The translations under genes and the position numbers were made by a program. The notes below the pieces were generated by a model. That model did not search any database. It was given only the letters and a program-made list of their open reading frames with translations, and was not told where the DNA came from. This document shows positions 5,823 to 64,000 of a stretch of 64,000 nt of DNA, piece by piece. The first letter of the stretch is position 1. Every line of letters starts with the position of its first letter. Origin of the DNA: Deltaproteobacteria bacterium (GTDB lineage Bacteria > Desulfobacterota > Binatia > Binatales > Binataceae); the NCBI GenBank assembly GCA_003161515.1, contig PMOH01000316.1, positions 1,210 through 65,209 on the forward strand. The letters run 5' to 3'.

Positions 5823-5825
5823 CTG

Positions 5826-7623: not shown

Positions 7624-7633
7624 GGGAAAGCGG

Positions 7634-9808: not shown

Positions 9809-9925
9809 AAAAGCTCCGAGCGCGGGCGTCCGGGCCTAACCGGAGCCTCCGGACTTTGCCAGCCGGTATCTGGCGGCTCGCGCTCGGTTCTTTGATCGTG
9901 CTAAGGGGAGAGGAGGGATACCTAC

Positions 9926-21337: not shown

Positions 21338-22708
21338 ATGTCGAGCCCAGGCACTTTCGTAAATTTCCCGCCGCAACTCCTTGGGATGTTGCAGCAAAAT
21401 TTCCTCGATCGCGAACTCGAGGAAGGTCTCGATTCCTATCTGGCCTACCGGCGCGAAGCGGTCCAGGAGACTATCCCAGCGCGGATCGGCGCGACCCTCA
21501 CTATGACCAGAAAGGGGCGTAAGACCCCGATCACGCAACCGCTCGATCCGACCCAGGTCGGCACCAACCTCGACAATGGGATGACGCCCTCGACGTTCTC
21601 CATCGAGCAGTACAGCTTCTCGATGAAGGAATGGGCGGATACCGTCGATACCGATTTGATGGGCGAATTGGCGGGCATAGCCAATCAGCTTATCGCCAAC
21701 TCGCGGAACAACGGCGTCCAAGCCGCGCAGTCGATGGAGCGCATCGCGCGTAATGATTTGTTCGCCGCATACATGAGCGGCAACTCGCGCGTCCTCGCCG
21801 TCAACTCGCAGACGTCGATCCAGGTCGACGATATCCGCGGCTTCGGCACGGTCCTCGTAAACGGCACACCGCAGGGTGTGAGCTCGGCGACTCCGTTGGC
21901 GATCACCGAATACAACGATTCCGGAACTTTGGCGACGGCCACGCAGGCGCTCAACGTCACGGGCGTCGCCCCGGACGCGACGAACGTGAGCTCCACCAGC
22001 ATCACCGGTGGGCTGTCGGGAGTGCTGACCTTGGCGGCCGGCGCGGCCAATACGATCCAGGTGGGCGACTCGGTCATCTCGAACAATGCCCCCAAGGTGT
22101 TCCGGCCGTTCGGCAAACGCCTGACGAGTTTGCTAAATGGCGCCGACGTTCTCACCATGTCGATCGTCGATGATGTCCGGGCCTATCTGCTGGATAACGG
22201 CGTTCCGCCGATGCCCGATGGCACCTATCACATGATTTTGGATAACACCTCGATGCGTCAGTTGAGGGCCGATCAGGACTTCAAAGTCCTGTTCGCAGGG
22301 CGCGAGGAGACTCCGGAGTTTCGCGGCGGCGATATCGTGCGCCTGCTTGGCATAACTTTCATCCCCACCACGGAAACCTTTGTCCAAAATCCCGGCTCCG
22401 GCGTTGGGGTGCGAGTACGCCGGCCGATCATCATGGGGGCCGAGAGCTTGATGCAGGGTAACTTCGAAGGGCTGGACATCTGGCTCAATCGAGAGGGCGT
22501 CAATCCGATCGGCGAGATCATGCTGATCGATAACGTCGCTCAGATTGTGAGGCCACCGCTCGATCGCCTGCAGCGCAACATCGCGCAGACCTGGACTTGG
22601 ATCGGAGACTTCGCGGTCCCGACCGACGTCACCGCCACCACAGACACTATCCCCACCGCTAGTAACTCCTTGTTCAAACGCGCAGCGGTGATTGAGATAG
22701 CTGGCTGA
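21338..22708 (+). CDS. major capsid protein candidate
   Basis: 456 aa, the largest head-module ORF, downstream of the scaffold. No signal peptide. The call rests on size and position only. Confidence 0.45.
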   Translation: MSSPGTFVNFPPQLLGMLQQNFLDRELEEGLDSYLAYRREAVQETIPARIGATLTMTRKGRKTPITQPLDPTQVGTNLDNGMTPSTFSIEQYSFSMKEWADTVDTDLMGELAGIANQLIANSRNNGVQAAQSMERIARNDLFAAYMSGNSRVLAVNSQTSIQVDDIRGFGTVLVNGTPQGVSSATPLAITEYNDSGTLATATQALNVTGVAPDATNVSSTSITGGLSGVLTLAAGAANTIQVGDSVISNNAPKVFRPFGKRLTSLLNGADVLTMSIVDDVRAYLLDNGVPPMPDGTYHMILDNTSMRQLRADQDFKVLFAGREETPEFRGGDIVRLLGITFIPTTETFVQNPGSGVGVRVRRPIIMGAESLMQGNFEGLDIWLNREGVNPIGEIMLIDNVAQIVRPPLDRLQRNIAQTWTWIGDFAVPTDVTATTDTIPTASNSLFKRAAVIEIAG

Positions 22709-44800: not shown

Positions 44801-47005
44801 GGTACGACCAGACGAGCACAGACCTTTGCCTGCGACGAGTATCATGGCTGTTCGGGTCCGACTGCCGTTCAACAGATTACCAACGGAGCGGCAGCACTCA
44901 ATCACGGAAACTCGTTGCTGTGGCAGTCGCCTTCGTGGCCGACAGGAACTCCGATCACAGTTAGCGGAGTTTCGTGGGCAAGTGGGTTGGTTACGGCTAC
45001 TACTTCAAGTCCTCACGGTTGGGTTGGAAATCCTTTTCTTACGATAGCGTCCACTAACGGCAATTTGGTTTATACAGGTCCGGTGACTATCACTGGGGCC
45101 AGCACGTTTGCTTATCCTGTCGCCGCAACTCCAGGTGCTGTGGGTACTACAACCGCCGCCCTTGAGGCCAGCTTCGTAGGTTACTGCGGATGTACGGGAG
45201 CAGCCTGTACGCCAGTGCTTCGGCAATCAAAAACGCCGGAATATACTTCTAATAACGGGGAGGTAGAGCCGTTCAACAGTGATTTGTATGCATTCTTAGA
45301 TGCTCACACACCAGCCTTTCCGAAGAATCTAAGCATCTTCGATTTTGATAGACCGTGGGCCTACGATCCTCAAAACAGCGGGACTGTGTGCCCTGCTACG
45401 GCCTCGAACGGAACTCTCTACGGGAAAATCATCTCGACGACCTCAACCACGGTAGTTTTTACGAATCTCTATAACACTACGATTCAGACTGGAAGCTTTA
45501 CCGGATACTTGAATGCCGGACCCCATATCCAAGCTACGAGTGTTGCTTCTGGTGCTGGCAACGACGCTTCCGGTAAGACATATCTTCCAAGGGCGATATA
45601 TCCGATCTTTGGTAATCCAGGAAATATCAACAGCGTTGGTATTCAAACTCTTAACGTTCTAACGCCTGAATTTGAAAGCTCGGGCAATGATAGTGTCGAA
45701 TACACCGCAAATACTGGTGTTGGCGGAAGTGAATTGGTGCCGATGGAATTCGGCATGACGATGTTTGGGCTTTATCAAACATTGAGTCCACAACTGTCCG
45801 GTCTTACAATGATCAACGATGGTGGCGCTACCCCGTCGATCTATATTGATTTTGATGGCTTCGATGTAGGTAACGGGAACGGGGTTGGGCACACGCCAAG
45901 TCGGATGCAGTTAAGTCATATTCATACGAGTGCTGCTCACATCGGACTGCGTAAGGCCAACATCAATAATCAGAATGTTGAAAACGGCTTATTTACCGAT
46001 GTCGTTCTTGGACCAGGAGGGACAAGCCTGAATAGCGACATCTCGTGGTGGAATGGAAATGGCAACGCGCTTGAAGATACGTGGATCAATAGTAATTGGG
46101 ACGCGAGCATAGGAGTCGCAGACAACTTAGCCGGCTTCACTCGTATATCTACCTCATGCTCACAAGTCGGAGCGGTCTGTATTTGGGAACTGGGTGGCTA
46201 CGGCGGACCTATATCGATTACTGGCTACAATCGAGATGAGCATCTTGAGAGGGAGTACTTCGGTGCTGGTTTAGGCGCATTAGGCGCTGGTCAAAATGTT
46301 TCTATTTCTGGAGCGGAGTTTACGGACGCAACGGTTCCCCCCGATGGGATGTACTTCGCGATGACGGGAGCCGGAACAGTCAGGATTACGGACTCAGAGT
46401 TCGATCAAGTTCCGGCTGGCATACAGAGCGATTACTCTACAGTGTTATTTCCAAATGGAGTGCTCTGGCCTGGTCAGTCAAACGGGGCTACTGGGGGTTG
46501 GACTATTTCTGATGGCACCCAGTGGGGTCCGGGGTTCTGTACGGGAGCTGCCTTTAATCAAGTCAATGGTGGAGAAGAGCGCGCAGATAGGTGTCTTAAT
46601 TCGTCTGGCATAGTCCAACCCGTCTCTACCATGTACGAGAGAACTTCTGGCAAAGGATTTCAATTTGGACTACCAAGTGGGGGTGGGAAAGGTCAAGGCA
46701 CAATTAACGTACAGAATGGCTTATATCTCAACGGTAGTCTTAAGGGGATACCGTTCGCGTCGGCTACGATGTCAGTTACTGCCCCTACAGCAGTCGGTTG
46801 CGTAGATGGGACTGTTGCGGTAGCCGGTTCAACTATAGGCATGTCGGTGAATTGCACACCGCAAACAAATCCTACAGGGACAGGCGGACTAATTGCTCTC
46901 TATGGATTTCTCTCCGCTGCCGGGACAGCGGATTGCCACGTCTGTAATCTAGCGGTCGAAACATCTCCACCGGCAACCACTTATAACGTCACGGTCTCAA
47001 ATTGA
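41813..47005 (+). CDS. giant tail fibre / host-recognition protein
   Basis: 1730 aa, Thr/Ser/Gly/Asn-rich. It has an N-terminal signal/anchor-like hydrophobic segment, three internal repeats of about 110 aa, and a C-terminal beta-helix-like region. Confidence 0.5.
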   Translation: MATRCRMDRTKLGTRILFAVVMLLMLASSARADVGIFRRNNCQSGPDAVTAPVNDQTWCFDSATDSLLLYTGNAWVKQTGASALGSLAGDTTGPAGANITHQWHRTTVLVTTAMSPYTQLSTDSYIDCLPNTGAVTINLLVTSDVGNPTGNVLTVKNQLPASAACNIVPHAGDTIDGASGTYAVTSPQPLNLHNANIAGTGSWERWSGILPGTTCVNQFASAIDTTGTLTCSSVNLSNSVTGTLPNANGGSGTVYGAPAYFSQISNAGGAIGTTANKLAKVTGNPSTALISTAGDTSGALGIVTAGAGIGGTATIQMSGLTNCVFDNSTLAGDYVAISPSVAGDCHDAGASFPTSGQVLGRVLSTNGSAGTYQMFLFAAEQQGSSASSSGTVTSVGVSVASVPEIAVSGGPITGAGTFTFTKNSESANTFAGGPASGGATAWAFRLLVGADLPNPSSTSLGGIQSIVAQTHKWINSISTLGVPNLVQPACADLSDSSPSCSTDTTNAANISSGTLAAARLPNPSATTIGGVESEVNSAHFFLTGITTLGVVSNAQPDFSDLTGTATDAQLANGYSGTGACAAHKWASTLNRNAIQTCTQPDASDITSLVASATTDTTNASNISSGTLAQARLSAGYAAPTAHSFIIGQGTSAPTALNCASGTFAYGQGASVDPICHTLGAADISGAFGSQTANTFYSAPNGSSGTPNFRTIAGADLPNPSASLLGGTESKASAAHFFLTGISTSGVPSSAQPDFTDLTGGATAAQILTALASPPPEGTGTPNTGIFSPFKGSGNGATIDTTVANPFIGGISGVRANEKSVDAFGAPTGTTGTSLTLNGTTTLTMAGGVPATWLPNTYFAIPKGGPAPMVNTPSVTTNGTTTAILMQLTGDNTGGGTNAARVKAGCATPIVKVYCPGGSTTCTVTNQSDFEDPSIVGGAKSCIDIAGQTVGGSTHCAGGTGTTFQVVAISGSDSIILDVAPTSTSAAAVTFNAPTACGTTRRAQTFACDEYHGCSGPTAVQQITNGAAALNHGNSLLWQSPSWPTGTPITVSGVSWASGLVTATTSSPHGWVGNPFLTIASTNGNLVYTGPVTITGASTFAYPVAATPGAVGTTTAALEASFVGYCGCTGAACTPVLRQSKTPEYTSNNGEVEPFNSDLYAFLDAHTPAFPKNLSIFDFDRPWAYDPQNSGTVCPATASNGTLYGKIISTTSTTVVFTNLYNTTIQTGSFTGYLNAGPHIQATSVASGAGNDASGKTYLPRAIYPIFGNPGNINSVGIQTLNVLTPEFESSGNDSVEYTANTGVGGSELVPMEFGMTMFGLYQTLSPQLSGLTMINDGGATPSIYIDFDGFDVGNGNGVGHTPSRMQLSHIHTSAAHIGLRKANINNQNVENGLFTDVVLGPGGTSLNSDISWWNGNGNALEDTWINSNWDASIGVADNLAGFTRISTSCSQVGAVCIWELGGYGGPISITGYNRDEHLEREYFGAGLGALGAGQNVSISGAEFTDATVPPDGMYFAMTGAGTVRITDSEFDQVPAGIQSDYSTVLFPNGVLWPGQSNGATGGWTISDGTQWGPGFCTGAAFNQVNGGEERADRCLNSSGIVQPVSTMYERTSGKGFQFGLPSGGGKGQGTINVQNGLYLNGSLKGIPFASATMSVTAPTAVGCVDGTVAVAGSTIGMSVNCTPQTNPTGTGGLIALYGFLSAAGTADCHVCNLAVETSPPATTYNVTVSN
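43150..44110 (+). repeat. three tandem roughly 110-aa domain repeats inside the giant fibre gene
   Basis: The block ADLPNPS..LGG.ES...AHFFLTGI.T.GV.S.AQPDF.DLTG.AT.AQ recurs three times in the translation. Confidence 0.6.
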
Positions 47006-52368: not shown

Positions 52369-54021
52369 CTAAGCGGCGTGCCGCTTCACGATAATGCTGT
52401 CTTTCATGCCCTCGACGGCCTTGAAACCATTCTTGCCGTCTTTGTAGAGAAACCCTTTGCCGACCAACTCGTTCAGCGGCGGATAGATGTTCGGCGGTGC
52501 CGTCGAGATCCCTCGCGTCTTGAGCAGACTCAGGGTAGCTCCGCCAGTCTGGAAGCTGTCGAAGAATCCTTCATGGATGAGCAGAGCGCAAGCACCGAGC
52601 AGGGTATCCGAGCGCGCCTCGATGGTATGGCGCTGGACCTCGATATGGATTTCCGACTTCGAAGTGATCAGCTTGAGGATGCCGGGCGCTTCCTGTGTGA
52701 GCCGCGCCTTGACCATCTGATAGATGCGCTCGTCGGTCGGCAGGTTGACGTACTTGTCGGCCACGGTGTCGCCGACCTTGAGCGCTGGCGCGGGCGCGAC
52801 GCGCTGCAGGTCGGCGACGATCTCGCGCATCGCGTCGATCTTTTCTTCGAGCCGCTTATTCTCTTCGCGCAGCAGCGCGTTGCTCGTATCGAGGGCCTTC
52901 GCCTCTGCTTCTGTCACGGTCGATTCCTCCTCGTCCAATTGCTCGTCGATGTGGGCCATCGCCGCCACGCTATCTCGTAGTTCATGCTCCTCGTTAAGAA
53001 AGAACGTCTTGGCCTTAACCGGCGGCTCCGGCAACGGCAGCCCGCCGACGGCTACTTCCTGCGCATGATCTTCATCCAGCCATGCCGGTTGCACGTAGAC
53101 TTTGTGGACCTCGCGCCCGAAGCACGCGAAGAATTCGCCCTTGCCGAGTTGCATCACGTCTTCCGCCTTCGGCTTTCCGACGCCAGCGGGGATATGCGAC
53201 AGCGTGCGCTTGACCTCGTTCATCTCGCGTTGCACGCCGAGAATCCACACCTGGCACTGGCGCACGATGTCTTTCTGTATTCCAGCGAGGTCCTGGCTGT
53301 CCAAGTACAAATAGTTTTTCGATGCGCCGCCCTTGCGAATCAGGCTCTCCGCCGCGAGCATCACCGGGCTGCTGCGCTTCTGCGGCAGCATTTCCCATGC
53401 TTCCGGGATGATCGAGATGACCTCGTTCTCGTTCTCGTAGATCCATTCGAGCACGGAGCGAATCACCAACGCTTGAACCTCCGTCGAGTACGCCGCCAGG
53501 TCCATCACGTTGAGGCCGGTCTCCAGTTTGAGGGTTTTCGTATAAGGCAGTCGATCGATCTGGGGGATGACGATCTTCAGATACTCCGAGAGCTGGAGAT
53601 ACATATCGGCTTCGAAGCCGCGTGCCTGCTTCTTCCCGGTGAGGCGCCTTTCGACATTGTTCAGCACACCGGCGAGATTACGCGCGCCACGCGAAGCCTT
53701 GATGATTGAAGCGCGGATGATGCGGTTCTTCTCCCGCATGGTTGCTTCGATGATGGATTCAACGAAGCGCCAATCAGCGCGTTCTTTGAAGTACGGGGGT
53801 AGGCGATGCCCTTCGAGCAACGACCCTTCCGCGCGCTTTGTAACGAATGCGATCGCCCTTCGACCAGAGCGAGCAATCAAACCTTCGAGTGTGGTCGTCT
53901 TGCCTGAGAGTTGGGTGGCACCTGTAACGACGGTATGGCCGACGGGTATCGCGACAGCCGTCCCGGTGCCAATCTCAAACCCGAGATGTATCCCCCAGAT
54001 CGATCGACTGCTAGCGACCAA
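52369..54021 (-). CDS. P-loop ATPase with coiled-coil and C-terminal domain
   Basis: Walker A (GATQLSGKTTT) and a candidate Walker B (LYLDSQD). There is a central coiled coil. The ORF begins with a TTG at 54021, so the true start may be internal. Confidence 0.45.
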   Translation of the reverse strand: MVASSRSIWGIHLGFEIGTGTAVAIPVGHTVVTGATQLSGKTTTLEGLIARSGRRAIAFVTKRAEGSLLEGHRLPPYFKERADWRFVESIIEATMREKNRIIRASIIKASRGARNLAGVLNNVERRLTGKKQARGFEADMYLQLSEYLKIVIPQIDRLPYTKTLKLETGLNVMDLAAYSTEVQALVIRSVLEWIYENENEVISIIPEAWEMLPQKRSSPVMLAAESLIRKGGASKNYLYLDSQDLAGIQKDIVRQCQVWILGVQREMNEVKRTLSHIPAGVGKPKAEDVMQLGKGEFFACFGREVHKVYVQPAWLDEDHAQEVAVGGLPLPEPPVKAKTFFLNEEHELRDSVAAMAHIDEQLDEEESTVTEAEAKALDTSNALLREENKRLEEKIDAMREIVADLQRVAPAPALKVGDTVADKYVNLPTDERIYQMVKARLTQEAPGILKLITSKSEIHIEVQRHTIEARSDTLLGACALLIHEGFFDSFQTGGATLSLLKTRGISTAPPNIYPPLNELVGKGFLYKDGKNGFKAVEGMKDSIIVKRHAA

Positions 54022-54455: not shown

Positions 54456-55183
54456 CGACACCCGAACTTGTAATGGCAGCAAGTGGCATTCTCTTCGGGG
54501 GCGGGGTGCTATTCGCGGAATTTCGACGACGTATAGTCGACGAGAAACAAGAATCTGCGGATAAGCTCGCGCACGTGAAGGAACTCAACGACGCAAAGTT
54601 AGAAGCGGCGAAAAATCATGCGAATCTGTCGGGCAAACTGGATATGGCGGCTCTCCTACAGAGTGTGCAGTTCCAGCACCTTCAAGGTGTCACCAAAACA
54701 GCCGCCGAATCGCCAGCAACCACCATCGAAGTAGCCAACAACACGATTCAATCCCTAAGCAACCAAGTCAAGGAATTGACGGAATACACTCGCCACGTCA
54801 CACATGATCAATTCCGTCGCTTTGGAGAAGCCGTCCCTAACATTTTGGCCCTAGAACGTGGCGACGGCCATGCATACTGGCGGGACTACGCTGGCGTTCG
54901 GATACTCTATTGCCACTACATCGAGTCGATTAACTATGCCCAAGAGCTGATGGGTTTATTCGGGGCCTCAGCGATCACGGTCACTAGTTGGGAAGACAAT
55001 AGCTACGAAGCACTTAATATTGCTGGCCTCAAATTGCTGATCGCCGATCCGGGCAACCCAACAGACAACAATGTCAAGACAATGGCGCTTCTTCGAGCAG
55101 CGGATATTCAATTTGAAGTCGAAAAGCGGGAGACGGACGCCCCCCTTATCTCAACGTTACGCGTCGGTCGGTGCGCGGGATGA
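54452..55183 (+). CDS. membrane-anchored coiled-coil protein
   Basis: Transmembrane segment (VMAASGILFGGGVLFA) followed by a coiled coil. Local GC is lower, so it could be a moron. Confidence 0.4.
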   Translation: MTTPELVMAASGILFGGGVLFAEFRRRIVDEKQESADKLAHVKELNDAKLEAAKNHANLSGKLDMAALLQSVQFQHLQGVTKTAAESPATTIEVANNTIQSLSNQVKELTEYTRHVTHDQFRRFGEAVPNILALERGDGHAYWRDYAGVRILYCHYIESINYAQELMGLFGASAITVTSWEDNSYEALNIAGLKLLIADPGNPTDNNVKTMALLRAADIQFEVEKRETDAPLISTLRVGRCAG

Positions 55184-56028
55184 ACTATCAGCACCTTCGC
55201 GCACTCGTAGTCAACGACTACGCGATCAACAATCAGCGCTCGGATGTATTGAATGCCCGCCTGAAGCACCTCGACGACGCCTTCGCCTTGTCAACAGGCT
55301 CTATCTCGGCTGTGGATATCCAGTCATATACCGCCGGTAGATTAGCTCAAGGTACAGCCCCCGGAACCGTCAACCAAGAGTTAGCTGCGCTGCGCCGGAT
55401 GTTCAGTCTTGCGGTCAAACTCCGTCTGATCACTCTCGATCAAAAGCCTTGGATTCAACTTCTTCGCTTGCGCAACGCGCGCAAAGGCTTCTTCGAGAAA
55501 GACCAGTACGAGAGTGTCAAACGTGCTCTGCCAGAGCCGTATCGCCCGATCGTCACCACGATGTTCATCACGGGTTGGAGATGCCAAGAAGTTTTGTCCC
55601 GGCAGAAAAAGCATCTCGACCTAGCTAATGGATGGTTGCGGCTCGACCCAGGTGAGACCAAAAATGGCGAGGGCCGCGAGTTTCCGCTGACCCGCGATCT
55701 CCGCGCGTGTCTTACTCCGCAGCTCGCGGAAGTCAAGGCTTTTGAGCATCGCACGGGCAGGATCGTGCCGTGGCTTTTCCACAGGGACGGCGAGCGGATC
55801 TGTGGATTCAGGCGCGCTTGGGAGAACGCTTGCAAGCAGGCCGGCGTGCCGGGGCGGATGCTTCACGACTTCCGGAGAACAGCCGTTCGTAACATGGAGC
55901 GGAAAGGTGTCCCGCGCTCGGCCGCGATGAAGATGGTTGGAATGCTGACTGAGTCGATCTATCGTCGCTACGCGATCGTTGATGAGACTGTGCTGAAGGA
56001 GGCCGGCGCTAAGCTGGATGCATTATGA
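55171..56028 (+). CDS. int: tyrosine recombinase (phage integrase family)
   Basis: Catalytic-domain motifs are present (R in ...TGWRCQEV, LHDFRRT with His/Arg, and a terminal ESIYRRYA with the nucleophilic Tyr). At 285 aa it is short, with a core-binding but no arm-binding domain. Confidence 0.7.
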   Translation: MRGMNYQHLRALVVNDYAINNQRSDVLNARLKHLDDAFALSTGSISAVDIQSYTAGRLAQGTAPGTVNQELAALRRMFSLAVKLRLITLDQKPWIQLLRLRNARKGFFEKDQYESVKRALPEPYRPIVTTMFITGWRCQEVLSRQKKHLDLANGWLRLDPGETKNGEGREFPLTRDLRACLTPQLAEVKAFEHRTGRIVPWLFHRDGERICGFRRAWENACKQAGVPGRMLHDFRRTAVRNMERKGVPRSAAMKMVGMLTESIYRRYAIVDETVLKEAGAKLDAL

Positions 56029-56420
56029 TGGCCGAGGCTGACCACAGACTGCTGGCGACGCTGGCCTACCCTGAGTACAAGCCGGGGCAGATGTGCGAAG
56101 ATGTTATGGCTGCCCATCGGCACGAGCCTGTCATCTGCATGAAGCACAATAAGTCTTATCCCCACGAAATCCCGCCGCCTCCCGTAGACACCTATGAGGC
56201 GATGGGGCGGATCATCGCGGCGCTGTTCAAGCGGGGCCTCTACCTAAGCCCTAGTCGTCGTCATTTCCCGGTCTGGACCGGTGTCTGTCTCATGCAAATG
56301 GATAATGACTACCCAGAAGAGCCTGTATTGATCGTGCAGAAATCAATCACCAATTCCACTGACTTCATCGCCGCCGTCTGCGAGGCCGCGTTGCAGGTAC
56401 GGCGCAAGGAGCAGGTATGA
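56025..56420 (+). CDS. hypothetical protein
   Basis: 131 aa, ATGA-coupled. Confidence 0.35.
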   Translation: MMAEADHRLLATLAYPEYKPGQMCEDVMAAHRHEPVICMKHNKSYPHEIPPPPVDTYEAMGRIIAALFKRGLYLSPSRRHFPVWTGVCLMQMDNDYPEEPVLIVQKSITNSTDFIAAVCEAALQVRRKEQV

Positions 56421-56638
56421 ATAGTCATCACCCAAAAGGTTTACGATATACGATGACGATCCTACGGAGCGACGGCACCTACTGGGTCAAGGAGCATGTC
56501 AAACACGTTATCATCAAGCCGGGGTTCGTCGTGGTCTACGAGGGCGAGCATGGCGTGGATCGTGTGCAATCGTGGATACCGAACGAGAGGATCGATCACT
56601 TTACTCTCGAAGAGGAACGCAAGGAACAAAGTAAATGA
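56417..56638 (+). CDS. hypothetical protein
   Basis: 73 aa. Confidence 0.35.
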   Translation: MNSHHPKGLRYTMTILRSDGTYWVKEHVKHVIIKPGFVVVYEGEHGVDRVQSWIPNERIDHFTLEEERKEQSK

Positions 56639-57138
56639 GCGATTACACGAAAGACTTGATTGTAGAAGCTCGTGCTACCTGTGTCCGTGAGCATTCTAAG
56701 GAACCTCACCCCTGTCTGGAGCGGGCGTTGGCACTAGCCCTCGAAGCTGAGTCCGCGAAGGTGAAACGAGTGGAAGCGCTGCAAAAGCAAATGCACGATT
56801 GGAATGCCACCTCTGTAGGCGTCGTTTGGGTACGCGGTTTAGTAGATGTTTGCCTCGCCCCACCGAACAGCGGCGAGCAGGCAATGAGGTGTGAAGTCCT
56901 ACGCGGTTGTGTCGGAGATACAGGTCATTTCGGCGAGCACACGTTCGGGCCATCCACCCCTCCCGCACCCACTGAGGCCGCGACGCGGGAGCACCTAATC
57001 AAGAAAATCAATGCTATTGTCGATCCGTTCTTGTATCTACGGAATATCGACAATACGCGACCTATGGGCACCGGCTCTTGGGAACAGGTGGTCGTAGACT
57101 TAGCCGACGCCATCATCGCAGTAGCGAGGGCCAAATGA
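56635..57138 (+). CDS. hypothetical protein
   Basis: 167 aa. Confidence 0.35.
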   Translation: MSDYTKDLIVEARATCVREHSKEPHPCLERALALALEAESAKVKRVEALQKQMHDWNATSVGVVWVRGLVDVCLAPPNSGEQAMRCEVLRGCVGDTGHFGEHTFGPSTPPAPTEAATREHLIKKINAIVDPFLYLRNIDNTRPMGTGSWEQVVVDLADAIIAVARAK

Positions 57139-57410
57139 GCCAGCTCCGCCGCGAAAGTCGAGAGGACGGTTTCAAGCCTTTCGAGCCTAAGCCCCTTCCC
57201 TCGTCGGCAGTTTTAGCCGCCGTCCGCATAGCTGGTGGCCCCGACAAAGTCGCTGAACTCCTAGGAGTACATCGAAGTCAGGTTTACCGATGGATAAGGG
57301 CGCGGACTATGGCGCGGGCGCGTTATCAGTACGTTGAGACGCTGGCGGATTTGTCCGGCGTCGATATGCGCCTACTAGGCGTGAAAGGCTTGACATCCGC
57401 GCGCGACTGA
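57135..57410 (+). CDS. Cro/YdaS-like HTH DNA-binding protein
   Basis: AGGPDKVAELLGVHRSQVYRWI matches the YdaS/Cro HTH pattern. The ATGA overlap at 57135 couples it to the upstream gene. Confidence 0.45.
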   Translation: MSQLRRESREDGFKPFEPKPLPSSAVLAAVRIAGGPDKVAELLGVHRSQVYRWIRARTMARARYQYVETLADLSGVDMRLLGVKGLTSARD

Positions 57411-57611
57411 GTATCATCGCGGGCAGACTGGCTGATCCCCGGTCATAGGTTCGCGGCGCGCGGCCCGGCTCTGGTTTGTCTCAACCCCAAATCACCCGGC
57501 CGCGATGCCATAGGGTTGAAATGCGGAACGATTCAGACATAGACCCATCACGCGTCGAAAAATCATGGGGTAGTTGCGCCCGCGTGATCCGATCGTGGCG
57601 GAGAGGAGGCG

Positions 57612-58457: not shown

Positions 58458-58920
58458 AGAGACCTTCAGGCTCTACCAGATCTTTTTGCAGGAGCTCGAT
58501 GCGCGCGACGGTCGCGCTGCCGTGATGGAGATTATCCGATCACCGCGCGAATTCGCGCCTCCGGTCGGAATACTCCTCGACCTCGGCAAACAGTTCGAGA
58601 GGAGACGGCTCGAACATGAATTTTGGCGCGAACGCTGGTACGAGCCCGGCAGCATAGCTTACACACCCGACGGCCAACGATGCGCGGCTGATGCCGATGG
58701 CCATATGCAGCCCGCCCCTGAGCCCGAACCTCCCGCTATAAGCGATCAGCGGCGCGACGAGATAGCTCAACTCGTCGGTCAACTAGCCGAGCAGGCTGAG
58801 CAACCACGAATTCGAGCACGAATTGACGGCGCGGCACGTAACGATGCGCTCCGCCGCGGATTGCGCATTGGCGATATTCTGAGAATCGATCACAAATCCA
58901 AAGGAGAATCGAATCAATGA
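58387..58920 (+). CDS. hypothetical replication-module protein
   Basis: ORF overlapping the end of the initiator gene. Start is ambiguous (58342, 58387 or 58420). Confidence 0.3.
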   Translation: MEANQALALTAMLTAAYPSWASGEETFRLYQIFLQELDARDGRAAVMEIIRSPREFAPPVGILLDLGKQFERRRLEHEFWRERWYEPGSIAYTPDGQRCAADADGHMQPAPEPEPPAISDQRRDEIAQLVGQLAEQAEQPRIRARIDGAARNDALRRGLRIGDILRIDHKSKGESNQ

Positions 58921-59315
58921 GTTGTTCACACGCAGGCTGTACGAACTGCCGAGAGTTGGAAGCGCAAGAAGCGCAAGTTCAGTGGAACGAGACGCTCTGG
59001 GCGCTACGCGCATCGGAGATACTGACGCTGGTGACCCGAGCGTACCACCTTGAACACTTCGACCTGACCGGCCCGCTGCGCACAGCGCATATTGCGAGTG
59101 CGAGACAAATCGCGTGCTATCTTTTGCGACGGCTCACGGGATATAGCTACCCCATGATCGGCGAGATACTGCACCGCGACCACTCGACGATAATTCACGC
59201 GTACAACGTGGTGGCTAAACAGATGGCCATGATGCCGGATCGAAAGCGTGTCATCGACGCGATGGCTTACGCGATCGAGCATCCGGCGGAACAGCAAAGG
59301 CAGGTGGCGGTATGA
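58917..59315 (+). CDS. DnaA domain IV (DnaA C-terminal DNA-binding) homologue, standalone
   Basis: ARQIACYLLRRLTGYSYPMIGEILHRDHSTIIHAYNVVAKQMA reproduces the DnaA-box-binding HTH signature (R.IAMYL.R.LT..S...IG..FGRDHSTV.HA). It has no AAA+ domain. Confidence 0.55.
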   Translation: MSCSHAGCTNCRELEAQEAQVQWNETLWALRASEILTLVTRAYHLEHFDLTGPLRTAHIASARQIACYLLRRLTGYSYPMIGEILHRDHSTIIHAYNVVAKQMAMMPDRKRVIDAMAYAIEHPAEQQRQVAV

Positions 59316-59341
59316 TTCCGAAGGGAGCCCGAGTTTCGAAA

Positions 59342-59364
59342 GGGAATTATTGATTTGAGTCCCT
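59342..59364 (+). repeat. TIR (left, cassette A)
   Basis: GGGAATTATTGATTTGAGTCCCT. Confidence 0.85.
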
Positions 59365-59371
59365 TATTACG

Positions 59372-60025
59372 ATGAAGCCGTATTTTGAAGAGGCGGGGAT
59401 TACGATTTTTCACGGTGACTGCCGCGAAGTGCTCGGAATGTATTCGGGCTTTATCGTTACCGACCCGCCTTACGGTATCGACCATCCGACCGACTATAGG
59501 GCGCGGGGGCGGGGTGCGTTGGCTGAGTGTGCTGATTATCCGCGCGTGGCTGGCGATGCCGAGCCTTTTGAGCCGTCTTTCTTGCTTGACCGACCCTGCG
59601 TGCTATTCGGAGCCAATTACTTCGCTGACAGGCTGCCGCCGTCGTCGGGCTGGCTAGTCTGGGACAAGATGCGCCCACATGGCCTCGACCAAGCGACTGC
59701 GGAACTGGCGTGGTCGAATTTCGTCAAGGGTGTTCGGGTGTTTCGCTATCTCTGGAACGGCATGATCAGGGATGGCAACGAGGCATTAGAGCACCCGACA
59801 CAGAAGCCGGTCGCGCTAATGAAATGGATTCTGGCGCTGAAATGGACGCCTGCGGGGCGGGTAATTGACCCCTTTATGGGCGCAGGCTCGACCCTAATCG
59901 CGGCGAAAGACATGGGGCGCGAGGCTGTCGGCATCGAACTCGAAGAACGGTATTGCGAAATTGCGGCACGGCGATTGAGCCAGTCAGCGATGCAATTCGG
60001 GACGCAAAATGAATCAAGGGACTAA
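59372..60025 (+). CDS. beta-class amino-DNA methyltransferase (N6-adenine or N4-cytosine)
   Basis: Motif IV TDPPYG near the N-terminus and motif I (FMGAGSTLIAAKDMGR) near the C-terminus. This circular permutation defines beta-class N6A/N4C MTases. Confidence 0.7.
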   Translation: MKPYFEEAGITIFHGDCREVLGMYSGFIVTDPPYGIDHPTDYRARGRGALAECADYPRVAGDAEPFEPSFLLDRPCVLFGANYFADRLPPSSGWLVWDKMRPHGLDQATAELAWSNFVKGVRVFRYLWNGMIRDGNEALEHPTQKPVALMKWILALKWTPAGRVIDPFMGAGSTLIAAKDMGREAVGIELEERYCEIAARRLSQSAMQFGTQNESRD

Positions 60026-60218
60026 ACTATATAATTCCCTTTCGAAAGCGGTTGGGGAGTACGACCGCCTGGTCACCGAGATGGTGGGCGTTTCCAATGT
60101 CTTAGTGCGACGCGGCGGCACCTCACGCAAGAATCTGTGGCGGGAAGAATCCCCCGAAGAGGCGATGAAGCGGTTCGGGCAGCCAGCGCCGACGAATCCG
60201 CTGCATGTGAACCGATGA
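60009..60218 (+). CDS. hypothetical small protein (N-terminus encoded by TIR; start doubtful)
   Basis: 69-aa ORF. Its first roughly 13 codons lie in the right TIR and TSD of cassette A. Confidence 0.25.
   Translation: MNQGTKLYNSLSKAVGEYDRLVTEMVGVSNVLVRRGGTSRKNLWREESPEEAMKRFGQPAPTNPLHVNR
60017..60039 (-). repeat. TIR (right, cassette A, degenerate)
   Basis: The reverse complement reads GGGAATTATATAGTTTAGTCCCT. Ends are conserved and the centre has diverged. Confidence 0.6.
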
Positions 60219-60448
60219 CTCTACCTGTCGACCCGAGAGTCCGGCGCTTGGAACCGGAAGTGGTTTCGCCGGAGACCGAACGCGAAGCGCTCCACGTTCG
60301 TTTCCAATTCGACACAATCTACGAACATGGCTGCGGCCTAGCTCTCGGCATCGGTCACATCGAGAGCAGCGACCACAGCTATGCCGTAACGATGCGGCGA
60401 CTAGCCGACGGACGTGTCGAGGTTCTGCACGTCCGGGAGATGCGGTAA
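60215..60448 (+). CDS. hypothetical small protein
   Basis: 77 aa from the ATG at 60215. ATGA overlap upstream and TAATG overlap downstream. Confidence 0.3.
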   Translation: MTLPVDPRVRRLEPEVVSPETEREALHVRFQFDTIYEHGCGLALGIGHIESSDHSYAVTMRRLADGRVEVLHVREMR

Positions 60449-60777
60449 TGGCAATTCGAATCCAGCGGAAGCGCACGCGTGGTTGGAAAGCTCCTGAAGG
60501 CGCTGTCTACGTCGGGCGTCCGACCGAATGGGGGAATCCTTGGACGGTTGGGCTCGTGGCCTGCGGCTGTCGCTCAGCAGGCGAATGCGATCACAATTGC
60601 TTTCGCGTCGAAACCGCCGAAGAGGCCGTCGATATGTACCGTCGGTGGGCGTCCGGTTGGAGCGATGAGAAAAAGCAGCGTTGTCGAGATCAATTGAGTG
60701 GAAAAGATCAGATGGACTGGTGTTCACTCGACAAGCCCTGCCACGCGGACGTGACGTTGGAGATCGCGAACGCATGA
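60448..60777 (+). CDS. DUF4326-family protein
   Basis: RKRTRGWKAPEGAVYVGRPTEWGNPW is the characteristic DUF4326 N-terminal signature. Confidence 0.5.
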   Translation: MAIRIQRKRTRGWKAPEGAVYVGRPTEWGNPWTVGLVACGCRSAGECDHNCFRVETAEEAVDMYRRWASGWSDEKKQRCRDQLSGKDQMDWCSLDKPCHADVTLEIANA

Positions 60778-61355
60778 GAGTCCTGCTAACCCAGAGCGAG
60801 CGCCTGAACTTCTTCGTCGCCAAGCTGACGTATTGGGACCTCACGTTCGAGCCTCGAGGCCTCGCCAGCGTCGAACTCTGTCTCTGCGAAGAGACCGAGA
60901 AAAGAGACCACCGCCTCCGCCGGTCGGCCGGCATGAAACACCTGGCCGAGTGCCCCGCCACGGATAGCGAAATGGAATTCATCGAGCCGCTTTGGGCCCG
61001 ATGCTGCGCGATCGCCATCGTCGGCCGCATCGGATTCATCAAGCACGCGCCGAAGCCTTGGCGAGTCTATTTCCGCGACCTGCTCGATCAGCGCGAGCCG
61101 CGCGCGGCCGCCCTCGAGGACGGCAGGATGCGGATGCTCGCCGTGGGCGCCCGGCTGCAGGGAATCAACGCGAAGTACAACGAGAAAGAGGCGCTGGTGT
61201 TCATGCTCAAGATCGTCGCGACGATCGCGCGCGCCGGCGGCCGCGAAGAGATTCGGGAATTCCTCAACGGGAATCCGGTTCCCGCGTCGATCCGATCGCT
61301 GGGCTACAGAACCATTGTCGACGATCTCTTGCGCGCAATGGAGTTGCCGTCGTGA
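60774..61355 (+). CDS. hypothetical protein
   Basis: 193 aa from the ATG at 60774 (ATGA-coupled). The ORF extends upstream to 60681. Confidence 0.35.
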   Translation: MRVLLTQSERLNFFVAKLTYWDLTFEPRGLASVELCLCEETEKRDHRLRRSAGMKHLAECPATDSEMEFIEPLWARCCAIAIVGRIGFIKHAPKPWRVYFRDLLDQREPRAAALEDGRMRMLAVGARLQGINAKYNEKEALVFMLKIVATIARAGGREEIREFLNGNPVPASIRSLGYRTIVDDLLRAMELPS

Positions 61356-61362
61356 AAGTAAG

Positions 61363-61385
61363 GGGAATTATTGATTTGAGTCCCT
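61363..61385 (+). repeat. TIR (left, cassette B)
   Basis: GGGAATTATTGATTTGAGTCCCT. Confidence 0.85.
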
Positions 61386-61394
61386 CGCCGCACA

Positions 61395-61862
61395 ATGCAA
61401 ATCCGTAGAGCACAACCATGCGAAACGCGAAAACTAAAAGACTGGATCGCAGCGAATCACTACCTGCAATCCGCTCCTCCGGGATTTGTGCATCTCTACG
61501 AGTTCATCGAGGGCAAGGAATTGATCGGCGGGATGATTTTGGGCCGCCCATCCGCGAAGCAATACAACCCCGACAAAATCCTCCAACTTCACCGCGTCTT
61601 TTTCATCGACGATACCGCCCCGAATGTCGAGAGTCAGGGACTTTCCATGATGCGCCGCATGGTTCGGGTTTGGATACCGCAGATTCGCGGTCTCTTGTCC
61701 TATTCCGATCCAAGCATCGGCCACGAAGGGACGATTTACGAGGCCGATATGTGGTGTCCGCTCGGCCTGACCGACGAACACTGGGGCTACGGGTGGAAAA
61801 GCCGCGAAGGACGGCGCGATCAACGGGTCAGTCGCAAGATGCGATGGTTTAGAACGCCATGA
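61395..61862 (+). CDS. hypothetical protein (cargo of cassette B)
   Basis: 155 aa with a hydrophobic-core-like pattern (IAANHYLQSAPPGFVHLYEF ... GGMILGRP). No motif I can assign. The stop overlaps the next start (ATGA). Confidence 0.4.
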   Translation: MQIRRAQPCETRKLKDWIAANHYLQSAPPGFVHLYEFIEGKELIGGMILGRPSAKQYNPDKILQLHRVFFIDDTAPNVESQGLSMMRRMVRVWIPQIRGLLSYSDPSIGHEGTIYEADMWCPLGLTDEHWGYGWKSREGRRDQRVSRKMRWFRTP

Positions 61863-62215
61863 AGGGACTCAAATCAATAATTCCCAAAGTAAGTCTCGGC
61901 GGCGAGAGCGGCAACAAGTACGGCGCGCGCAAGACAAGCTGCGGGAAGCACATCCATGATTCCAATCGCGAAGCTCAACGATGTGCAGAACTGCGGCTCA
62001 TGGAGAAGGGCCGCTTGATCGCTGATTTGATATTCCAGCCAGCGTTTCCCATGTGGTACGGCGACAACCTGATCTGCACTTACGTCGCTGATTTTATGTA
62101 CCACGAGGAAGATGAACTCGTTGTCGAAGACGTGAAGGGTAAAGCCACAGATAGTTACATTATCAAGCGCAAAATGCTCAAGGCATTTTATGGAATCACG
62201 GTGAGGGAGACTTGA
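61859..62215 (+). CDS. DUF1064-family protein (restriction-endonuclease-like fold)
   Basis: NKYGARKTSCGKHIHDSNREAQR ... YVADFMY ... VEDVKGKATDSYIIKRKMLKAFYG matches the DUF1064 pattern. The first 9 codons (MKGLKSIIP) are encoded by the right TIR of cassette B. Confidence 0.5.
   Translation: MKGLKSIIPKVSLGGESGNKYGARKTSCGKHIHDSNREAQRCAELRLMEKGRLIADLIFQPAFPMWYGDNLICTYVADFMYHEEDELVVEDVKGKATDSYIIKRKMLKAFYGITVRET
61863..61885 (-). repeat. TIR (right, cassette B)
   Basis: AGGGACTCAAATCAATAATTCCC, a perfect inverted copy. Confidence 0.85.
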
Positions 62216-62856
62216 ACGTCAGAGATCGCATAATCGGCTTTAGTCGGGTCAGGGCTTCTGAACTTAAGGCCAATCCTTCCAATCCGAGGCAGCACGATGA
62301 GCGCGAGCGCGAGGTCTTTGGCGACCTACTCTCACGGATCGGGTTTGCCGGAGCACTTCTCGCATATCGCAACGCCGACGGCGAACTCGAGCTGGTAGAT
62401 GGCGCGCTACGCAAGGATCTGATGGAGGACCAAGAAGTCCCCGTGCTCGAGACTGACCTGACTCCCGACGAAGCGCGCGAGCTTCTGCTGTTCTTCGATC
62501 GCGTCGCCGGGATGGCGACCTACAATCCGGAGATCACGCTCGAGCTGGTCGAGCGTCTCAACCTGAACGGCGACGCGGCCGCGCTCGCGCACCTCGCCGA
62601 TGAGATGGAGGCGGAGGCGCAGATCGAGAGCATGTCCTCGGAAGCCAATCCGGAGACCGCGGGCGGTACGTCGCAACCAGGTGGTCGGAAGAAGCGCGGC
62701 GAGGATACGGGACCCACGCCGATCAAGGCTGTGATTTCAGTTTTCGAGCTCCAGATAGTGGAACGTGCGCTCAGTGCGACCCAAGAAAAAAATCGCGGGA
62801 CCGCACTCAGCATCATCTGCCAAGCATTTCTCAATTCGATAGGAGAGACGAATTGA
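62212..62856 (+). CDS. ParB-like nuclease domain protein
   Basis: ParB N-terminal domain box (LKANPSNPRQH ... ELVDGALR), then an acidic helical C-terminus. Confidence 0.55.
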   Translation: MNVRDRIIGFSRVRASELKANPSNPRQHDEREREVFGDLLSRIGFAGALLAYRNADGELELVDGALRKDLMEDQEVPVLETDLTPDEARELLLFFDRVAGMATYNPEITLELVERLNLNGDAAALAHLADEMEAEAQIESMSSEANPETAGGTSQPGGRKKRGEDTGPTPIKAVISVFELQIVERALSATQEKNRGTALSIICQAFLNSIGETN

Positions 62857-63053
62857 AAACTCTACGTCCAAAGAAAAAACCAATCTGGGGGATGCTTATC
62901 TATCGCACTACCAGCAAAGGCGTAGACCACATGCCGGAGATCCTGAATCAGATGACCGCCCAAGAGGCTCGGCAAGCGAAGGTCTGCATGGCGGGCGGCA
63001 ACACGATGGTCGTGTTCTACCCGATGCTCAAGAAAGGGGAATTATTGATTTGA
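62853..63053 (+). CDS. hypothetical small protein
   Basis: 66 aa. Its last codons run into the left TIR of cassette C. Confidence 0.3.
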   Translation: MKTLRPKKKPIWGMLIYRTTSKGVDHMPEILNQMTAQEARQAKVCMAGGNTMVVFYPMLKKGELLI

Positions 63054-63059
63054 GTCCCT
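63037..63059 (+). repeat. TIR (left, cassette C)
   Basis: GGGAATTATTGATTTGAGTCCCT. Confidence 0.85.
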
Positions 63060-63076
63060 CAATCAAAAACTCTCTC

Positions 63077-63757
63077 GTTTGGTTAGACCTTTGCTCCGGC
63101 CTAGGTGGCGCGAGTCAGCCGGCGTTGGATCGCGGTTGGAGGGTTATCAGAATCGACCTTGACTCTCGCTTCAGGCCCGACATCGTGGCCGACGTTCGCG
63201 CGCTGCCGCTCAAGGGCTATTGGGAATCTAGGGCGCTCCGCATCGATGTGCTGTGGGCGAGTCCGCCTTGCCAGGATTTTAGCAAACACGGACTGCGTTG
63301 CTTCTATCCGAATCCGCCGGAGCCGGATTTATCAATCGCTAACGCCGTCGGGGCGTTGATCAACCGACTTCAACCGCGTTTCTGGGTGATTGAGAACGTG
63401 TGGGCGGCTCGTCCGTGGTTCACGAAGCTGTTCGGTCAGGTACGCGCCAAGCCGCCAGGCCACGCGCTGTGGTCCAACCTCGCATTCCTGCTTCCGAACA
63501 TCGAGCCGCACAAGAGTTCCAGCGTCCAACTTAAGTCGAGAGGCATCGGAGCGATTCCAGGAAAACCAGGCGATTGGCGCAAGACCTATCGAGGCCTTAG
63601 AGAGAGGCATGCCACCGGAATAAGACCCGTCAAAGCTACGCCGGGGCGCTGGATGGGCAGTCACCACGATATGACGCCAGCGGAAGCAGCCGTAATTCCC
63701 TATCCGATCGGTGAGGCCATCTGCGCAGCGGTGGAGCGAAGGGACTCAAATCAATAA
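63077..63757 (+). CDS. DNA cytosine-5 methyltransferase-like protein (short)
   Basis: Motif I (DLCSGLGG), motif IV (SPPCQDFS, the catalytic Pro-Cys) and motif VI (ENV). It is only about 227-235 aa with no clear motifs IX/X or target-recognition domain. Start is ambiguous (TTG at 63050 inside the TIR, or TTG at 63077). The stop TAA lies inside the right TIR. Confidence 0.5.
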   Translation, partial: VWLDLCSGLGGASQPALDRGWRVIRIDLDSRFRPDIVADVRALPLKGYWESRALRIDVLWASPPCQDFSKHGLRCFYPNPPEPDLSIANAVGALINRLQPRFWVIENVWAARPWFTKLFGQVRAKPPGHALWSNLAFLLPNIEPHKSSSVQLKSRGIGAIPGKPGDWRKTYRGLRERHATGIRPVKATPGRWMGSHHDMTPAEAAVIPYPIGEAICAAVERRDSNQ

Positions 63758-63762
63758 TTCCC
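63740..63762 (-). repeat. TIR (right, cassette C)
   Basis: AGGGACTCAAATCAATAATTCCC. Confidence 0.85.
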
Positions 63763-63795
63763 CAAGAAAGGGGTCAGGTACGAGGGGAGAGAAAA

Positions 63796-64000
63796 TTGAA
63801 AGCACTAACTTTAACGCAGCCGTGGGCTAGCCTTGTGGCCTTGGGGTTAAAACACATCGAGACTAGGAGTTGGAGCACGGGATATCGGGGACCGCTGGCT
63901 ATCCATGCCGCGAAAGGTTTTCCGAACGACTGCAAAGAACTATGTATCGAGGAGCCGTTTCGTTCCGTACTCTTGGTTGCAGGCATCGGCGGGGCAAGCG
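63796..64000 (+). CDS. ASCH-domain protein (partial, runs off the window end)
   Basis: LTLTQPWASLVALGLKHIETRSWSTGYRGPLAIHAA matches the ASCH/PUA-like N-terminal signature. TTG start with a GGGGAGAG RBS. Confidence 0.45.
   Translation, partial: MKALTLTQPWASLVALGLKHIETRSWSTGYRGPLAIHAAKGFPNDCKELCIEEPFRSVLLVAGIGGAS

Follow-up and report, generated by a model that had tools for sequence, protein, structure and literature searches.

How does a single phage come to carry several unrelated DNA-modification genes close together in one operon? The question is raised by positions 59372-64000 of a 64,000-nucleotide stretch of contig PMOH01000316.1 (assembly GCA_003161515.1), hereafter the window, which belongs to a temperate contractile-tailed phage or prophage (a myovirus). 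The original prediction, made from the sequence alone, had read this region as one multi-layered system for modifying DNA and processing modified DNA, built from two methyltransferases and a set of reader- and nuclease-like proteins. Its inventory of functions proved broadly right and becomes richer with a Mom-family gene that it lacked (61395-61862), and the phage plausibly modifies its DNA in several ways; one integrated system, however, is not supported, since the modification genes are separate insertions. We consider it very probable that the early operon of this myovirus received three independent non-autonomous cassettes of the IS1595 insertion-sequence (IS) family, named here C1, C2 and C3, which carry plug-in anti-restriction genes that are mobile between phages.

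The cassettes are defined by their ends. A repeat search revealed a 22-24-nt repeat, GGGAATTATTGATTTGAGTCCC, at six places in the window, with forward copies starting at 59342, 61363 and 63037 and reverse-complement copies ending at 60039 (a variant), 61885 and 63762. Five of the six copies have no mismatch, against 0.00 expected in shuffled sequences. They pair as terminal inverted repeats that enclose exactly three DNA-modification genes, an arrangement of six repeat copies bounding three single-gene cassettes that was absent from the earlier inventory, and reading the junctions revealed a perfect 8-bp direct target-site duplication around each pair. All three lie on the + strand and hold a single cargo open reading frame (ORF). 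C1 (698 bp, 59342-60039) encodes an N6/N4 methyltransferase and is bounded by a left repeat at 59342-59363 (GGGAATTATTGATTTGAGTCCC) and a right repeat at 60018-60039 (reverse complement GGGAATTATATAGTTTAGTCCC), outside which the duplicated octamer TTTCGAAA occupies 59334-59341 and 60040-60047. C2 (523 bp, 61363-61885) encodes the Mom-like protein between perfect 22-nt repeats at 61363-61384 and 61864-61885, with the duplication AAAGTAAG at 61355-61362 and 61886-61893. C3 (726 bp, 63037-63762) encodes a short cytosine-5 (C5) methyltransferase, again between perfect 22-nt repeats (63037-63058 and 63741-63762), with the duplication CAAGAAAG at 63029-63036 and 63763-63770. A tblastn search with an IS1595-type transposase found no transposase homologue anywhere in the 64-kb window, and the cassettes are therefore non-autonomous. 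Integron attC cassettes are ruled out, since the elements show target duplications and inverted repeats. An assembly artefact is likewise ruled out, by the perfect duplication at each insertion and by independent JGI, ENA and Logan datasets.

Empty sites and displaced copies in other contigs (given L-numbers here) point to movement of all three units. The C1 empty site was found in L111, retrieved from JGI metagenomes with the reconstructed pre-insertion sequence and originating from the same sample as L002, described below: window position 59341 is joined to 60040 through a single TTTCGAAA, the flanks are 98% identical, and the contig carries an intact 66-residue gene (MIPKGARVSKAVGEY...), as predicted from the reconstruction. 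For C2, contigs L039 and L040, which encode an identical ParB-like protein, join window 61114-61362 straight to 61886-63014 with a single AAAGTAAG, flanks 100% and 99.9% identical and an uninterrupted 110-residue DUF1064 gene; the DUF1064 and ParB-like genes are present there as backbone without the Mom cassette. A copy of C2 that is 100% identical stands at another site in L042, with its own duplication, AAATTAAG. L002, a 4.5-kb JGI contig, came to light in a look-up of a protein that agrees exactly with a portion of the C5 methyltransferase. The flanks of this contig correspond to window 3799-7625, and its methyltransferase segment equals window 63036-63762 at 100%; the C3 gene therefore occupies a different place in a near-identical phage. 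That copy of C3 is framed by its own 8-bp duplication, ATTTTATG, and the same octamer occurs in the window as a single, unoccupied copy at 6384-6391.

The reconstructed C1 and C3 empty-site sequences are absent from IMG/VR, and the C1 site was later found in the JGI metagenomes as described. For C3 no empty site (63029-63036) turned up, since the divergence of L039 from the window begins ahead of this position. Both L039 and L040 are 99.9% identical to the window up to 63014 and then diverge completely, just upstream of C3; beyond the divergence, an 81-residue ORF and a 220-residue protein replace the window's 66-residue ORF, C3 and the ASCH gene. L111 differs from the window in two further ways: it is without window 56063-57336, and it is without a 563-bp segment, 60212-60774 (a 77-residue ORF and the DUF4326 gene), whose junctions show neither inverted repeats nor a duplication. 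These segment differences look like ordinary mosaic exchange at gene boundaries, proceeding alongside the transposon insertions.

The repeats connect the cassettes to a known transposon family. We scanned IMG/VR and the GTDB genomes with degenerate versions of the repeat and paired inverted copies if their flanking octamers were identical, which yielded at least 75 unique elements, each framed by inverted repeats and by a perfect 8-bp duplication. They fall into four size classes: elements of 214-330 bp, the size of MITEs (miniature inverted-repeat transposable elements); cassettes of 369-1340 bp; and two longer classes of ~1.3-1.8 kb and 1.9-2.8 kb. The two longer classes (1.3-2.8 kb) encode proteins of ~305 residues with the domains PF12762 (DDE_Tnp_IS1595, E=4e-47) and PF12760 (Zn_ribbon_IS1595). 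A zinc-finger transposase and 8-bp duplications are the hallmarks of the IS1595 family (PMC8101967). AT makes up 81% of the duplicated octamers, in which positions 2, 3, 6 and 7 are nearly always W. The repeat starts with GGGAATTAT, which may resemble the end of the ISNwi1 group ('ggnnatTAT'). Exactly the two repeat variants of C1 bound a 1641-bp transposase-encoding element in a Terriglobales genome (L079), and further repeats of the window type occur in an Acidiferrales genome contig that also encodes a short C5 methyltransferase homologue (L093) and in a viral contig (L014) that shares its sample with L002 and L111. The phage host is therefore probably an acidobacterium, and a cognate transposase probably exists in that environment. 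Across loci L043-L110 the 22-nt repeat hardly varies between genomes that are assigned to very distant groups: Acidobacteriota, Pseudomonadota, Chloroflexota, Bacteroidota, Bacillota, Cyanobacteria, candidate phyla radiation bacteria and a Woesearchaeote. IS ends seldom show such breadth, and it suggests that the sequence has spread widely by horizontal transfer.

The association of the element family with DNA-modification cargo is general, as the cargo counts indicate. Among the matches listed, 15 of the 31 transposase-less cassettes carry a DNA-modification gene: an N6/N4 methyltransferase in seven, a short C5 methyltransferase in three, a Mom-family protein in three, and Dam (PF05869) and a QueD/PTPS homologue in one each. 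The other transposase-less cargo in that list comprises DUF1643 (2), a nucleoside deoxyribosyltransferase (1) and unknown proteins, and five listed transposase-bearing elements carry a methyltransferase in addition. The window is also joined by a second phage with more than one cassette: the unrelated viral contig L211 holds two (1658-2462 and 11961-12588), one with an N6/N4 methyltransferase and the other with a 186-residue Mom-family protein. The QueD/PTPS homologue (PF01242, E=5e-12) is encoded beside an unannotated 215-residue protein on a 1155-bp cassette, L130:9791-10945, and this cargo might be part of a 7-deazaguanine DNA-modification pathway. Another phage-like contig, L003, carries a different IS1595-family transposase gene (9204-10178) that shows no match to the 22-nt repeats, 7 kb from a short C5 methyltransferase homologue.

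All three window cassettes stand in the sense orientation of the early operon, and their boundaries are merged with its coding sequence. C1 splits a 66-residue gene after codon 10, C2 splits the DUF1064 gene after codon 3, and C3 replaces the last nine codons of the small ORF at 62853-63053. The stop codons of the C1 and C3 cargo (TAA in C3) fall within the right inverted repeat, the TTG start of the C3 cargo falls within the left one, and the cargo ORFs of many cassettes terminate inside the right repeat (...RDSSI*, ...RDSNQ*). In all three right repeats (60018-60039, 61864-61885 and 63741-63762) two frames are open and the third contains TAA. In C1, an ATG in the 3' end of the cargo reads in frame through this repeat into the split gene (MNQGTKLYNSLSK/AVGEY..., the slash marking the junction), and in C2 a new ATG at 61859 does the same into DUF1064 (MKGLKSIIP/KVSLGG...). 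The open right repeat may be adaptive, keeping insertion non-polar, or may simply follow from the survival of some insertions and not others. The 4-nt start/stop overlaps (ATGA, TAATG) from which a chain of genes had been deduced are real; at the cassette edges, the ATGA overlaps exist because the insertions themselves created them. A promoter scan found no promoter-like sites in or beside the cassettes, which are therefore probably transcribed by read-through. A terminator-like hairpin is present inside C1 (59431-59449), and terminator-like sites are no commoner than in shuffled sequence. Upstream of the replication genes, a sigma-70-like site at 57390-57417 (TTGACA, 16-nt spacer, TATCAT; 11/12) is the sole strong promoter match in 56-64 kb and a candidate early promoter for the whole chain, cassettes included.

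The cargo proteins belong to three enzyme families. The product of C1 (217 residues, 59372-60025, + strand) is a beta-class N6A/N4C DNA methyltransferase, an assignment borne out by PF01555 (E=6e-20, 72.5 bits against a cut-off of 26.7) and phrog_67 (E=4e-39), along with weak matches to CcrM-type NCBIfam models. Its motif IV, TDPPYG (residues 31-36), lies N-terminal of the AdoMet motif I, DPFMGAGST (FxGxG), near residue 157, which is the beta-class order. C2 encodes a 155-residue GNAT of the Mom family (61395-61862, + strand), identified by PF25680 (E=8e-16, 58.8 bits against a cut-off of 27.1, over profile positions 6-136 of 202 only) and phrog_1384 (E=3e-25). In phage Mu, mom is expressed late and is controlled by Com and Dam. 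Its product, the Mom protein of phage Mu, carries out a tRNA-Gly-dependent carbamoylmethylation of N6-adenine (PMC13219725, PMC7261163). Residues R111, S124, D149, R151 and Y159 are important for Mom activity, and deletion of a helix-turn-helix (HTH)-like insertion at about residues 175-209 abolishes it (PMC13219725). Aligned to Mom in PDB 8bv8, with a chain offset of +9 in the residue mapping, the C2 protein appears to present R67, S80, D105 and Y115 in the positions of R111, S124, D149 and Y159, and it also seems to have equivalents of H58/Y59. These apparent equivalents and the family match above cut-off constitute its likeness to Mu Mom, from which it differs in its length (155 versus 231 residues), in having no HTH-like insertion, in a serine at the position of R151 and in its regulation, as its gene lies in an early operon on a transposable cassette. 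Given the missing insertion and the R151 substitution, it may best be named a Mom-family GNAT of putative activity. Comparable short homologues (41-43% identity) are found in phages of Paenibacillus, with weaker matches in Vibrio phages and others.

The product of C3 (235 residues, 63050-63757, + strand) was expected to be a minimal C5 methyltransferase with motifs I, IV and VI and no target-recognition domain, and both the PF00145 match (E=4e-6, 26.9 bits against a cut-off of 22) and the alignment agree; the match is confined to residues 64-117, which span motifs IV-VI. It was also suspected of being degenerate or of depending on a partner. The latter may hold; a degenerate pseudogene is refuted by a family of 187 homologues, of which the 120 listed measure 131-272 residues and, almost without exception, align over about 95% or more of the query, and by invariant catalytic motifs. 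An alignment of 32 sequences shows little or no variation in motif I (DLCSGLGGASQ), the motif IV cysteine, the motif VI glutamate, GHxxW, HK and a C-terminal IPYEIGEAICRAVE helix; the cysteine of SPPCxxFS (C74) and the glutamate of ENV (E115) are both invariant. The closest folds are M.HhaI, M.HaeIII and DNMT1. The protein shares with M.HhaI and M.HaeIII motifs I (DLCSGLGG), IV (PPCQDFS) and VI (ENV) and a motif-X-like C-terminal helix, whereas the listed family members have 131-272 residues against ~325 in canonical enzymes, the small domain (target-recognition domain and motif IX) is replaced by a linker, and the GHxxW and HK motifs are conserved instead of a QxRxR motif VIII. This linker, which joins HK to the IPYEIG helix, has a variable length of ~10-70 residues, and disorder is predicted for it (predicted local distance difference test, pLDDT, <50). 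We infer that the C3 product would be a catalytic-core-only cytosine-5 methyltransferase of low or unusual specificity. Adenine methyltransferases of Mu-like prophages reportedly substitute for mom as protective enzymes. A loose precedent for such a core exists in Mu-like prophages without mom, which have small, non-specific adenine methyltransferases (PMC3299994).

The structural conclusion, that C1, C2 and C3 are independent, recently mobile cassettes of IS1595 type, is held with high confidence; for an anti-restriction function of their cargo, predicted from homology, our confidence is moderate. The following sequence of events would account for the locus. The host chromosome or a co-resident element would provide, in trans, the DDE transposase of a cognate IS1595-family element, and this enzyme would recognize the repeats and insert the cassette at AT-rich octamers of the form NWWNNWWN. 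Each insertion does carry an 8-bp duplication, and identical cassettes are found at different sites. The surviving insertions would be those in sense orientation at gene junctions, where read-through transcription of the early operon could express them, and the right repeat, open in two frames, would allow split downstream genes to restart in frame. Judging by homology, the cargo would then modify the phage DNA, producing N6-methyladenine (m6A) or N4-methylcytosine (m4C), 5-methylcytosine (5mC) and an acyl-type modification of N6-adenine, and thereby protect it from host restriction.

Several observations weigh against this account. All of the comparison contigs are metagenomic assemblies, and the census gives raw counts from scans that were seeded with a pattern. 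Two copies have no matching 8-bp duplication: that of C2 in L041 (67-589), which has unrelated flanks, and a 1081-bp cassette encoding a 352-residue C5 methyltransferase (L023:6882-7962, identical to L018:10396-11476). Homologous recombination at the repeats, or assembly chimeras, must therefore also occur, and recombination between copies, adjacent deletions or chimeras are possible explanations of both. The sense orientation of three out of three cassettes is not statistically significant. The cognate transposase is a candidate, in a window that holds no transposase gene, and mobilization in trans is presumed. As for the cargo, the enzymatic activities are predicted from sequence. The position of Mu Mom R151 is taken by S107 in the C2 protein, which ends 40 residues past the equivalent of Y159 and has no HTH-like insertion, and in the 32-sequence alignment of the C5-like family neither the QxRxR motif VIII nor a target-recognition domain is present.

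How else could the locus have been assembled? One answer, close to the original prediction, is a single co-evolved, multi-layered system inherited whole, in which the methyltransferases act as writers, the ASCH protein as reader and the ParB-like and DUF1064 proteins as nucleases. In its favour, 4-nt overlaps join the genes into a tight chain on one strand, several DNA-modification families and the ASCH domain are confirmed, and the products, once co-resident, could still cooperate. Nevertheless, every modification gene is framed by inverted repeats and a duplication of its own, near-identical phages lack C1 and the DUF4326 gene (L111) or C2 (L039/L040) and keep the backbone, identical cassettes turn up in unrelated flanks, a C5 methyltransferase homologue 79% identical to that of C3 resides in a quite different neighbourhood, and the overlaps at the cassette edges are products of insertion. 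Inheritance as one system is for these reasons quite improbable. The 22-nt repeats could instead be regulatory or recombination signals that belong to the phage (operators, halves of terminators, module boundaries), with genes shuffled among them by homologous or site-specific recombination and not by transposition; their location at gene boundaries fits this idea, as do the copies in L041 and L018/L023, which indicate that recombination between repeats occurs. We judge it to be highly improbable, considering that perfect 8-bp duplications of differing sequence flank at least 75 unique elements, that empty sites hold one copy of the octamer and no repeat, that IS1595-family transposase genes lie between the same ends in genomes assigned to many phyla, and that the cassettes have no promoter-like sites and terminator-like sites at only the shuffled frequency.

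A different doubt accepts the cassettes as transposable and concerns what they carry: the cargo might serve the element, for instance in regulating its transposition by methylation, act on RNA or host DNA, or consist of decaying passengers. All three enzymes are minimal versions, the Mom-like protein is without the essential HTH-like insertion and R151, the C5 enzyme is without a target-recognition domain, and other cassettes hold unknown proteins, DUF1643 or a nucleoside deoxyribosyltransferase. On the other hand, the C5 catalytic motifs are invariant across a large family of full-length proteins, several unrelated DNA-modification families recur as cargo in viral contigs, and small non-specific adenine methyltransferases have the precedent in Mu-like prophages noted above (PMC3299994). 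The copies of C2 and C3 at different sites are 100% identical, which indicates recent movement and counts against decay. A cargo with no role in anti-restriction seems to us rather unlikely, and we retain independent IS1595-type insertions of anti-restriction genes as the preferred reading.

This arrangement has partial counterparts among known mobile elements. The IS1595 family and its passenger-carrying derivatives were reportedly described by Siguier, Gagnevin and Chandler in 2009. PMC2853133 cites that paper with others that report IS elements on either side of restriction-modification systems and of solitary methyltransferase genes. The window cassettes share their ends and the 8-bp duplication with elements that encode DDE_Tnp_IS1595 and Zn_ribbon_IS1595 domains, and the census contains transposase-plus-passenger forms with the same ends. 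They differ from such elements in having no transposase, in their size of 0.5-0.7 kb, in the start and stop codons of the cargo that lie within the repeats, and in their setting, with three cassettes, one of them with Mom-family cargo, within 4.4 kb of a phage genome. Mobile insertion cassettes (MICs), of which MIC231 from Bacillus cereus is an example, consist of passenger genes flanked by IS-type repeats, have no transposase and are presumed to be mobilized in trans. The window cassettes resemble them in all of these features, including presumed mobilization by a cognate IS, but belong to IS1595 rather than IS4/IS231, reside in a phage replicon and carry DNA-modification genes instead of metabolic or resistance genes. 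Transposon-like restriction-modification units of Xanthomonas oryzae (Furuta, Abe and Kobayashi 2010, PMC2853133) have inverted repeats and an 8-bp duplication, and a related genome shows the matching site unoccupied. The parallel extends to the repeats bounding modification genes, the duplication and the matching empty site; those units, however, are chromosomal, have 65-bp repeats and include the restriction enzyme, in contrast to single orphan modification genes between 22-nt repeats in a phage, with the transposase family identified. Integron cassettes are a functional analogy only: they are also small, apparently promoterless single-ORF units in sense orientation that form an expressed array, yet they depend on attC and an integrase, have no inverted repeats or target duplication, and move by an unrelated mechanism. 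A survey of MITEs shared between viruses and their hosts does not mention cargo (PMC11602168). Passenger-bearing IS1595 elements, MICs and transposon-like units with restriction-modification or orphan methyltransferase genes are thus known in bacteria, and our literature search found no description of IS1595-type single-gene modification cassettes in phages, or of several in one phage.

The general view is that few transposable elements are tolerated by phages, whose orphan methyltransferases are usually regarded as fixed 'morons'. Here a route of acquisition is visible, as identical 0.5-0.7-kb cassettes in filled and empty states within a natural phage population. If general, it would offer a concrete mechanism for fast turnover of phage anti-restriction repertoires. 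The repeat and 8-bp duplication would furthermore serve as a signature for mining DNA-modification and anti-defence genes, with about a dozen cassettes of unknown cargo already at hand, and the cargo would supply compact candidate enzymes, namely a C5 methyltransferase core of ~200 residues without a target-recognition domain and a 155-residue Mom-like GNAT. A bolder proposal, which we advance tentatively and would not yet favour, is that one IS1595 lineage, whose nearly constant 22-nt ends recur in genomes assigned to many bacterial phyla and one archaeal lineage as well as in many viral contigs, has specialized as a shuttle for single-gene DNA-modification cassettes, which would hop between phages by means of host-borne transposases and form a mix-and-match anti-restriction pool, its ends having evolved stop and restart signals that make insertion non-polar. 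If true, this shuttle would play a role comparable to that of integron cassettes in antibiotic resistance.

The genes around the cassettes (all on the + strand) are an ordinary accessory early region, to which the DUF4326 (on a variable segment), 193-residue, DUF1064, ParB-like and ASCH genes belong. Four of the genes below, at 60009-60218, 60215-60448, 60774-61355 and 62853-63053, were absent from the earlier inventory. The small backbone gene split by C1 now occupies 60009-60218 and originally started at ATG 59312 (MIPKGARVSK/AVGEY...). It is followed by a 77-residue ORF with no assigned function (60215-60448) and by a DUF4326 protein of 109 residues, a backbone or mosaic gene (60448-60777), both in the segment missing from L111. 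The DUF4326 assignment is secure (PF14216, E=3e-16, 60.4 bits against a cut-off of 25; phrog_464, E=7e-26). The 193-residue gene (60774-61355) starts at ATG 60774 and not at TTG 60681, as the comparison with L111 indicates, and its product has no family match in Pfam, PHROG or NCBIfam searches. The DUF1064 gene split by C2 (61859-62215, original start GTG 61352) encodes a Holliday-junction-resolvase-like protein and was also correctly predicted (PF06356, E=1e-14, 55.2 bits against a cut-off of 24.7; phrog_190, Holliday-junction resolvase).

The next backbone gene (62212-62856) encodes a 214-residue protein with a divergent ParB/Srx-like N-terminal domain. It had been called a ParB-like nuclease, of which the ParB-like part stands weakly, through PHROG families 8071, 620 and 498 (ParB-like and methyltransferase-N-terminus) at ~1e-6, and the nuclease part is not established: Pfam gives no match at E<0.1, and a weak match to Spo0J (E=0.027) has GALR in place of the GERR motif. 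The 66-residue ORF that follows (62853-63053) has its 3' end replaced by C3, as inferred from the reconstructed pre-insertion sequence. The ASCH-domain gene, also a backbone gene, begins at 63796 and runs off the window edge at 64000. Its predicted domain is confirmed by a match of the N-terminal 49 residues to the ASCH domain of human ASC-1 in the PDB (E=3e-7) and by phrog_3193 (E=3e-20); the Pfam score (19.1 bits, E=0.002) is below the cut-off of 21.2 because the gene is truncated. A scan of IMG/VR with the last bases of the window, aimed at extending the gene, returned no match. In L039, a tblastn search with the ASCH fragment gave one short match on the opposite strand (E=0.11), and the 220-residue gene there is probably a different one.

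The window is identified as a phage because it encodes terminase, head, sheath and tape-measure proteins together with an integrase. PHROG matches place the large terminase subunit at 12292-13902, the major head protein at 21338-22708, the tail sheath at 27084-29006 and the tape measure at 30923-33025, and a domain search identified the tyrosine integrase at 55171-56028. After the integrase, the + strand encodes HTH regulators, an HTH_36 replication-type protein and a DnaA_C-domain protein (58917-59315); the cassette-bearing region is the continuation of this early operon, with replication and accessory genes, and its GC content (~0.57-0.59) is unremarkable. A DNA similarity search of the module against 50,697 phage records found no relatives, apart from a single patch of 80-90 nt in the DUF4326 gene that matches actinophages, and exact-protein look-ups gave no match for the DUF4326 protein, the DnaA_C protein or the N6/N4 methyltransferase.

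The rest of the window offers a few minor observations. In the tail region, a 1730-residue ORF (41813-47005) has no PHROG match at E<=1e-5, and the lowest GC content of the window (0.52) lies at 44-46 kb. A 38-nt inverted repeat with 97% complementarity occurs at 3674-3711 and 9382-9419, 5.7 kb apart; the similarity does not extend around the copies, which fall in separate + strand ORFs, one at 3058-4185 and the other at 8924-9808. A perfect 22-nt inverted repeat without a flanking duplication, GCAGTCGATCGATCTGGGGGAT at 53547-53568 and 53990-54011, encloses 421 bp just upstream of the integrase region.

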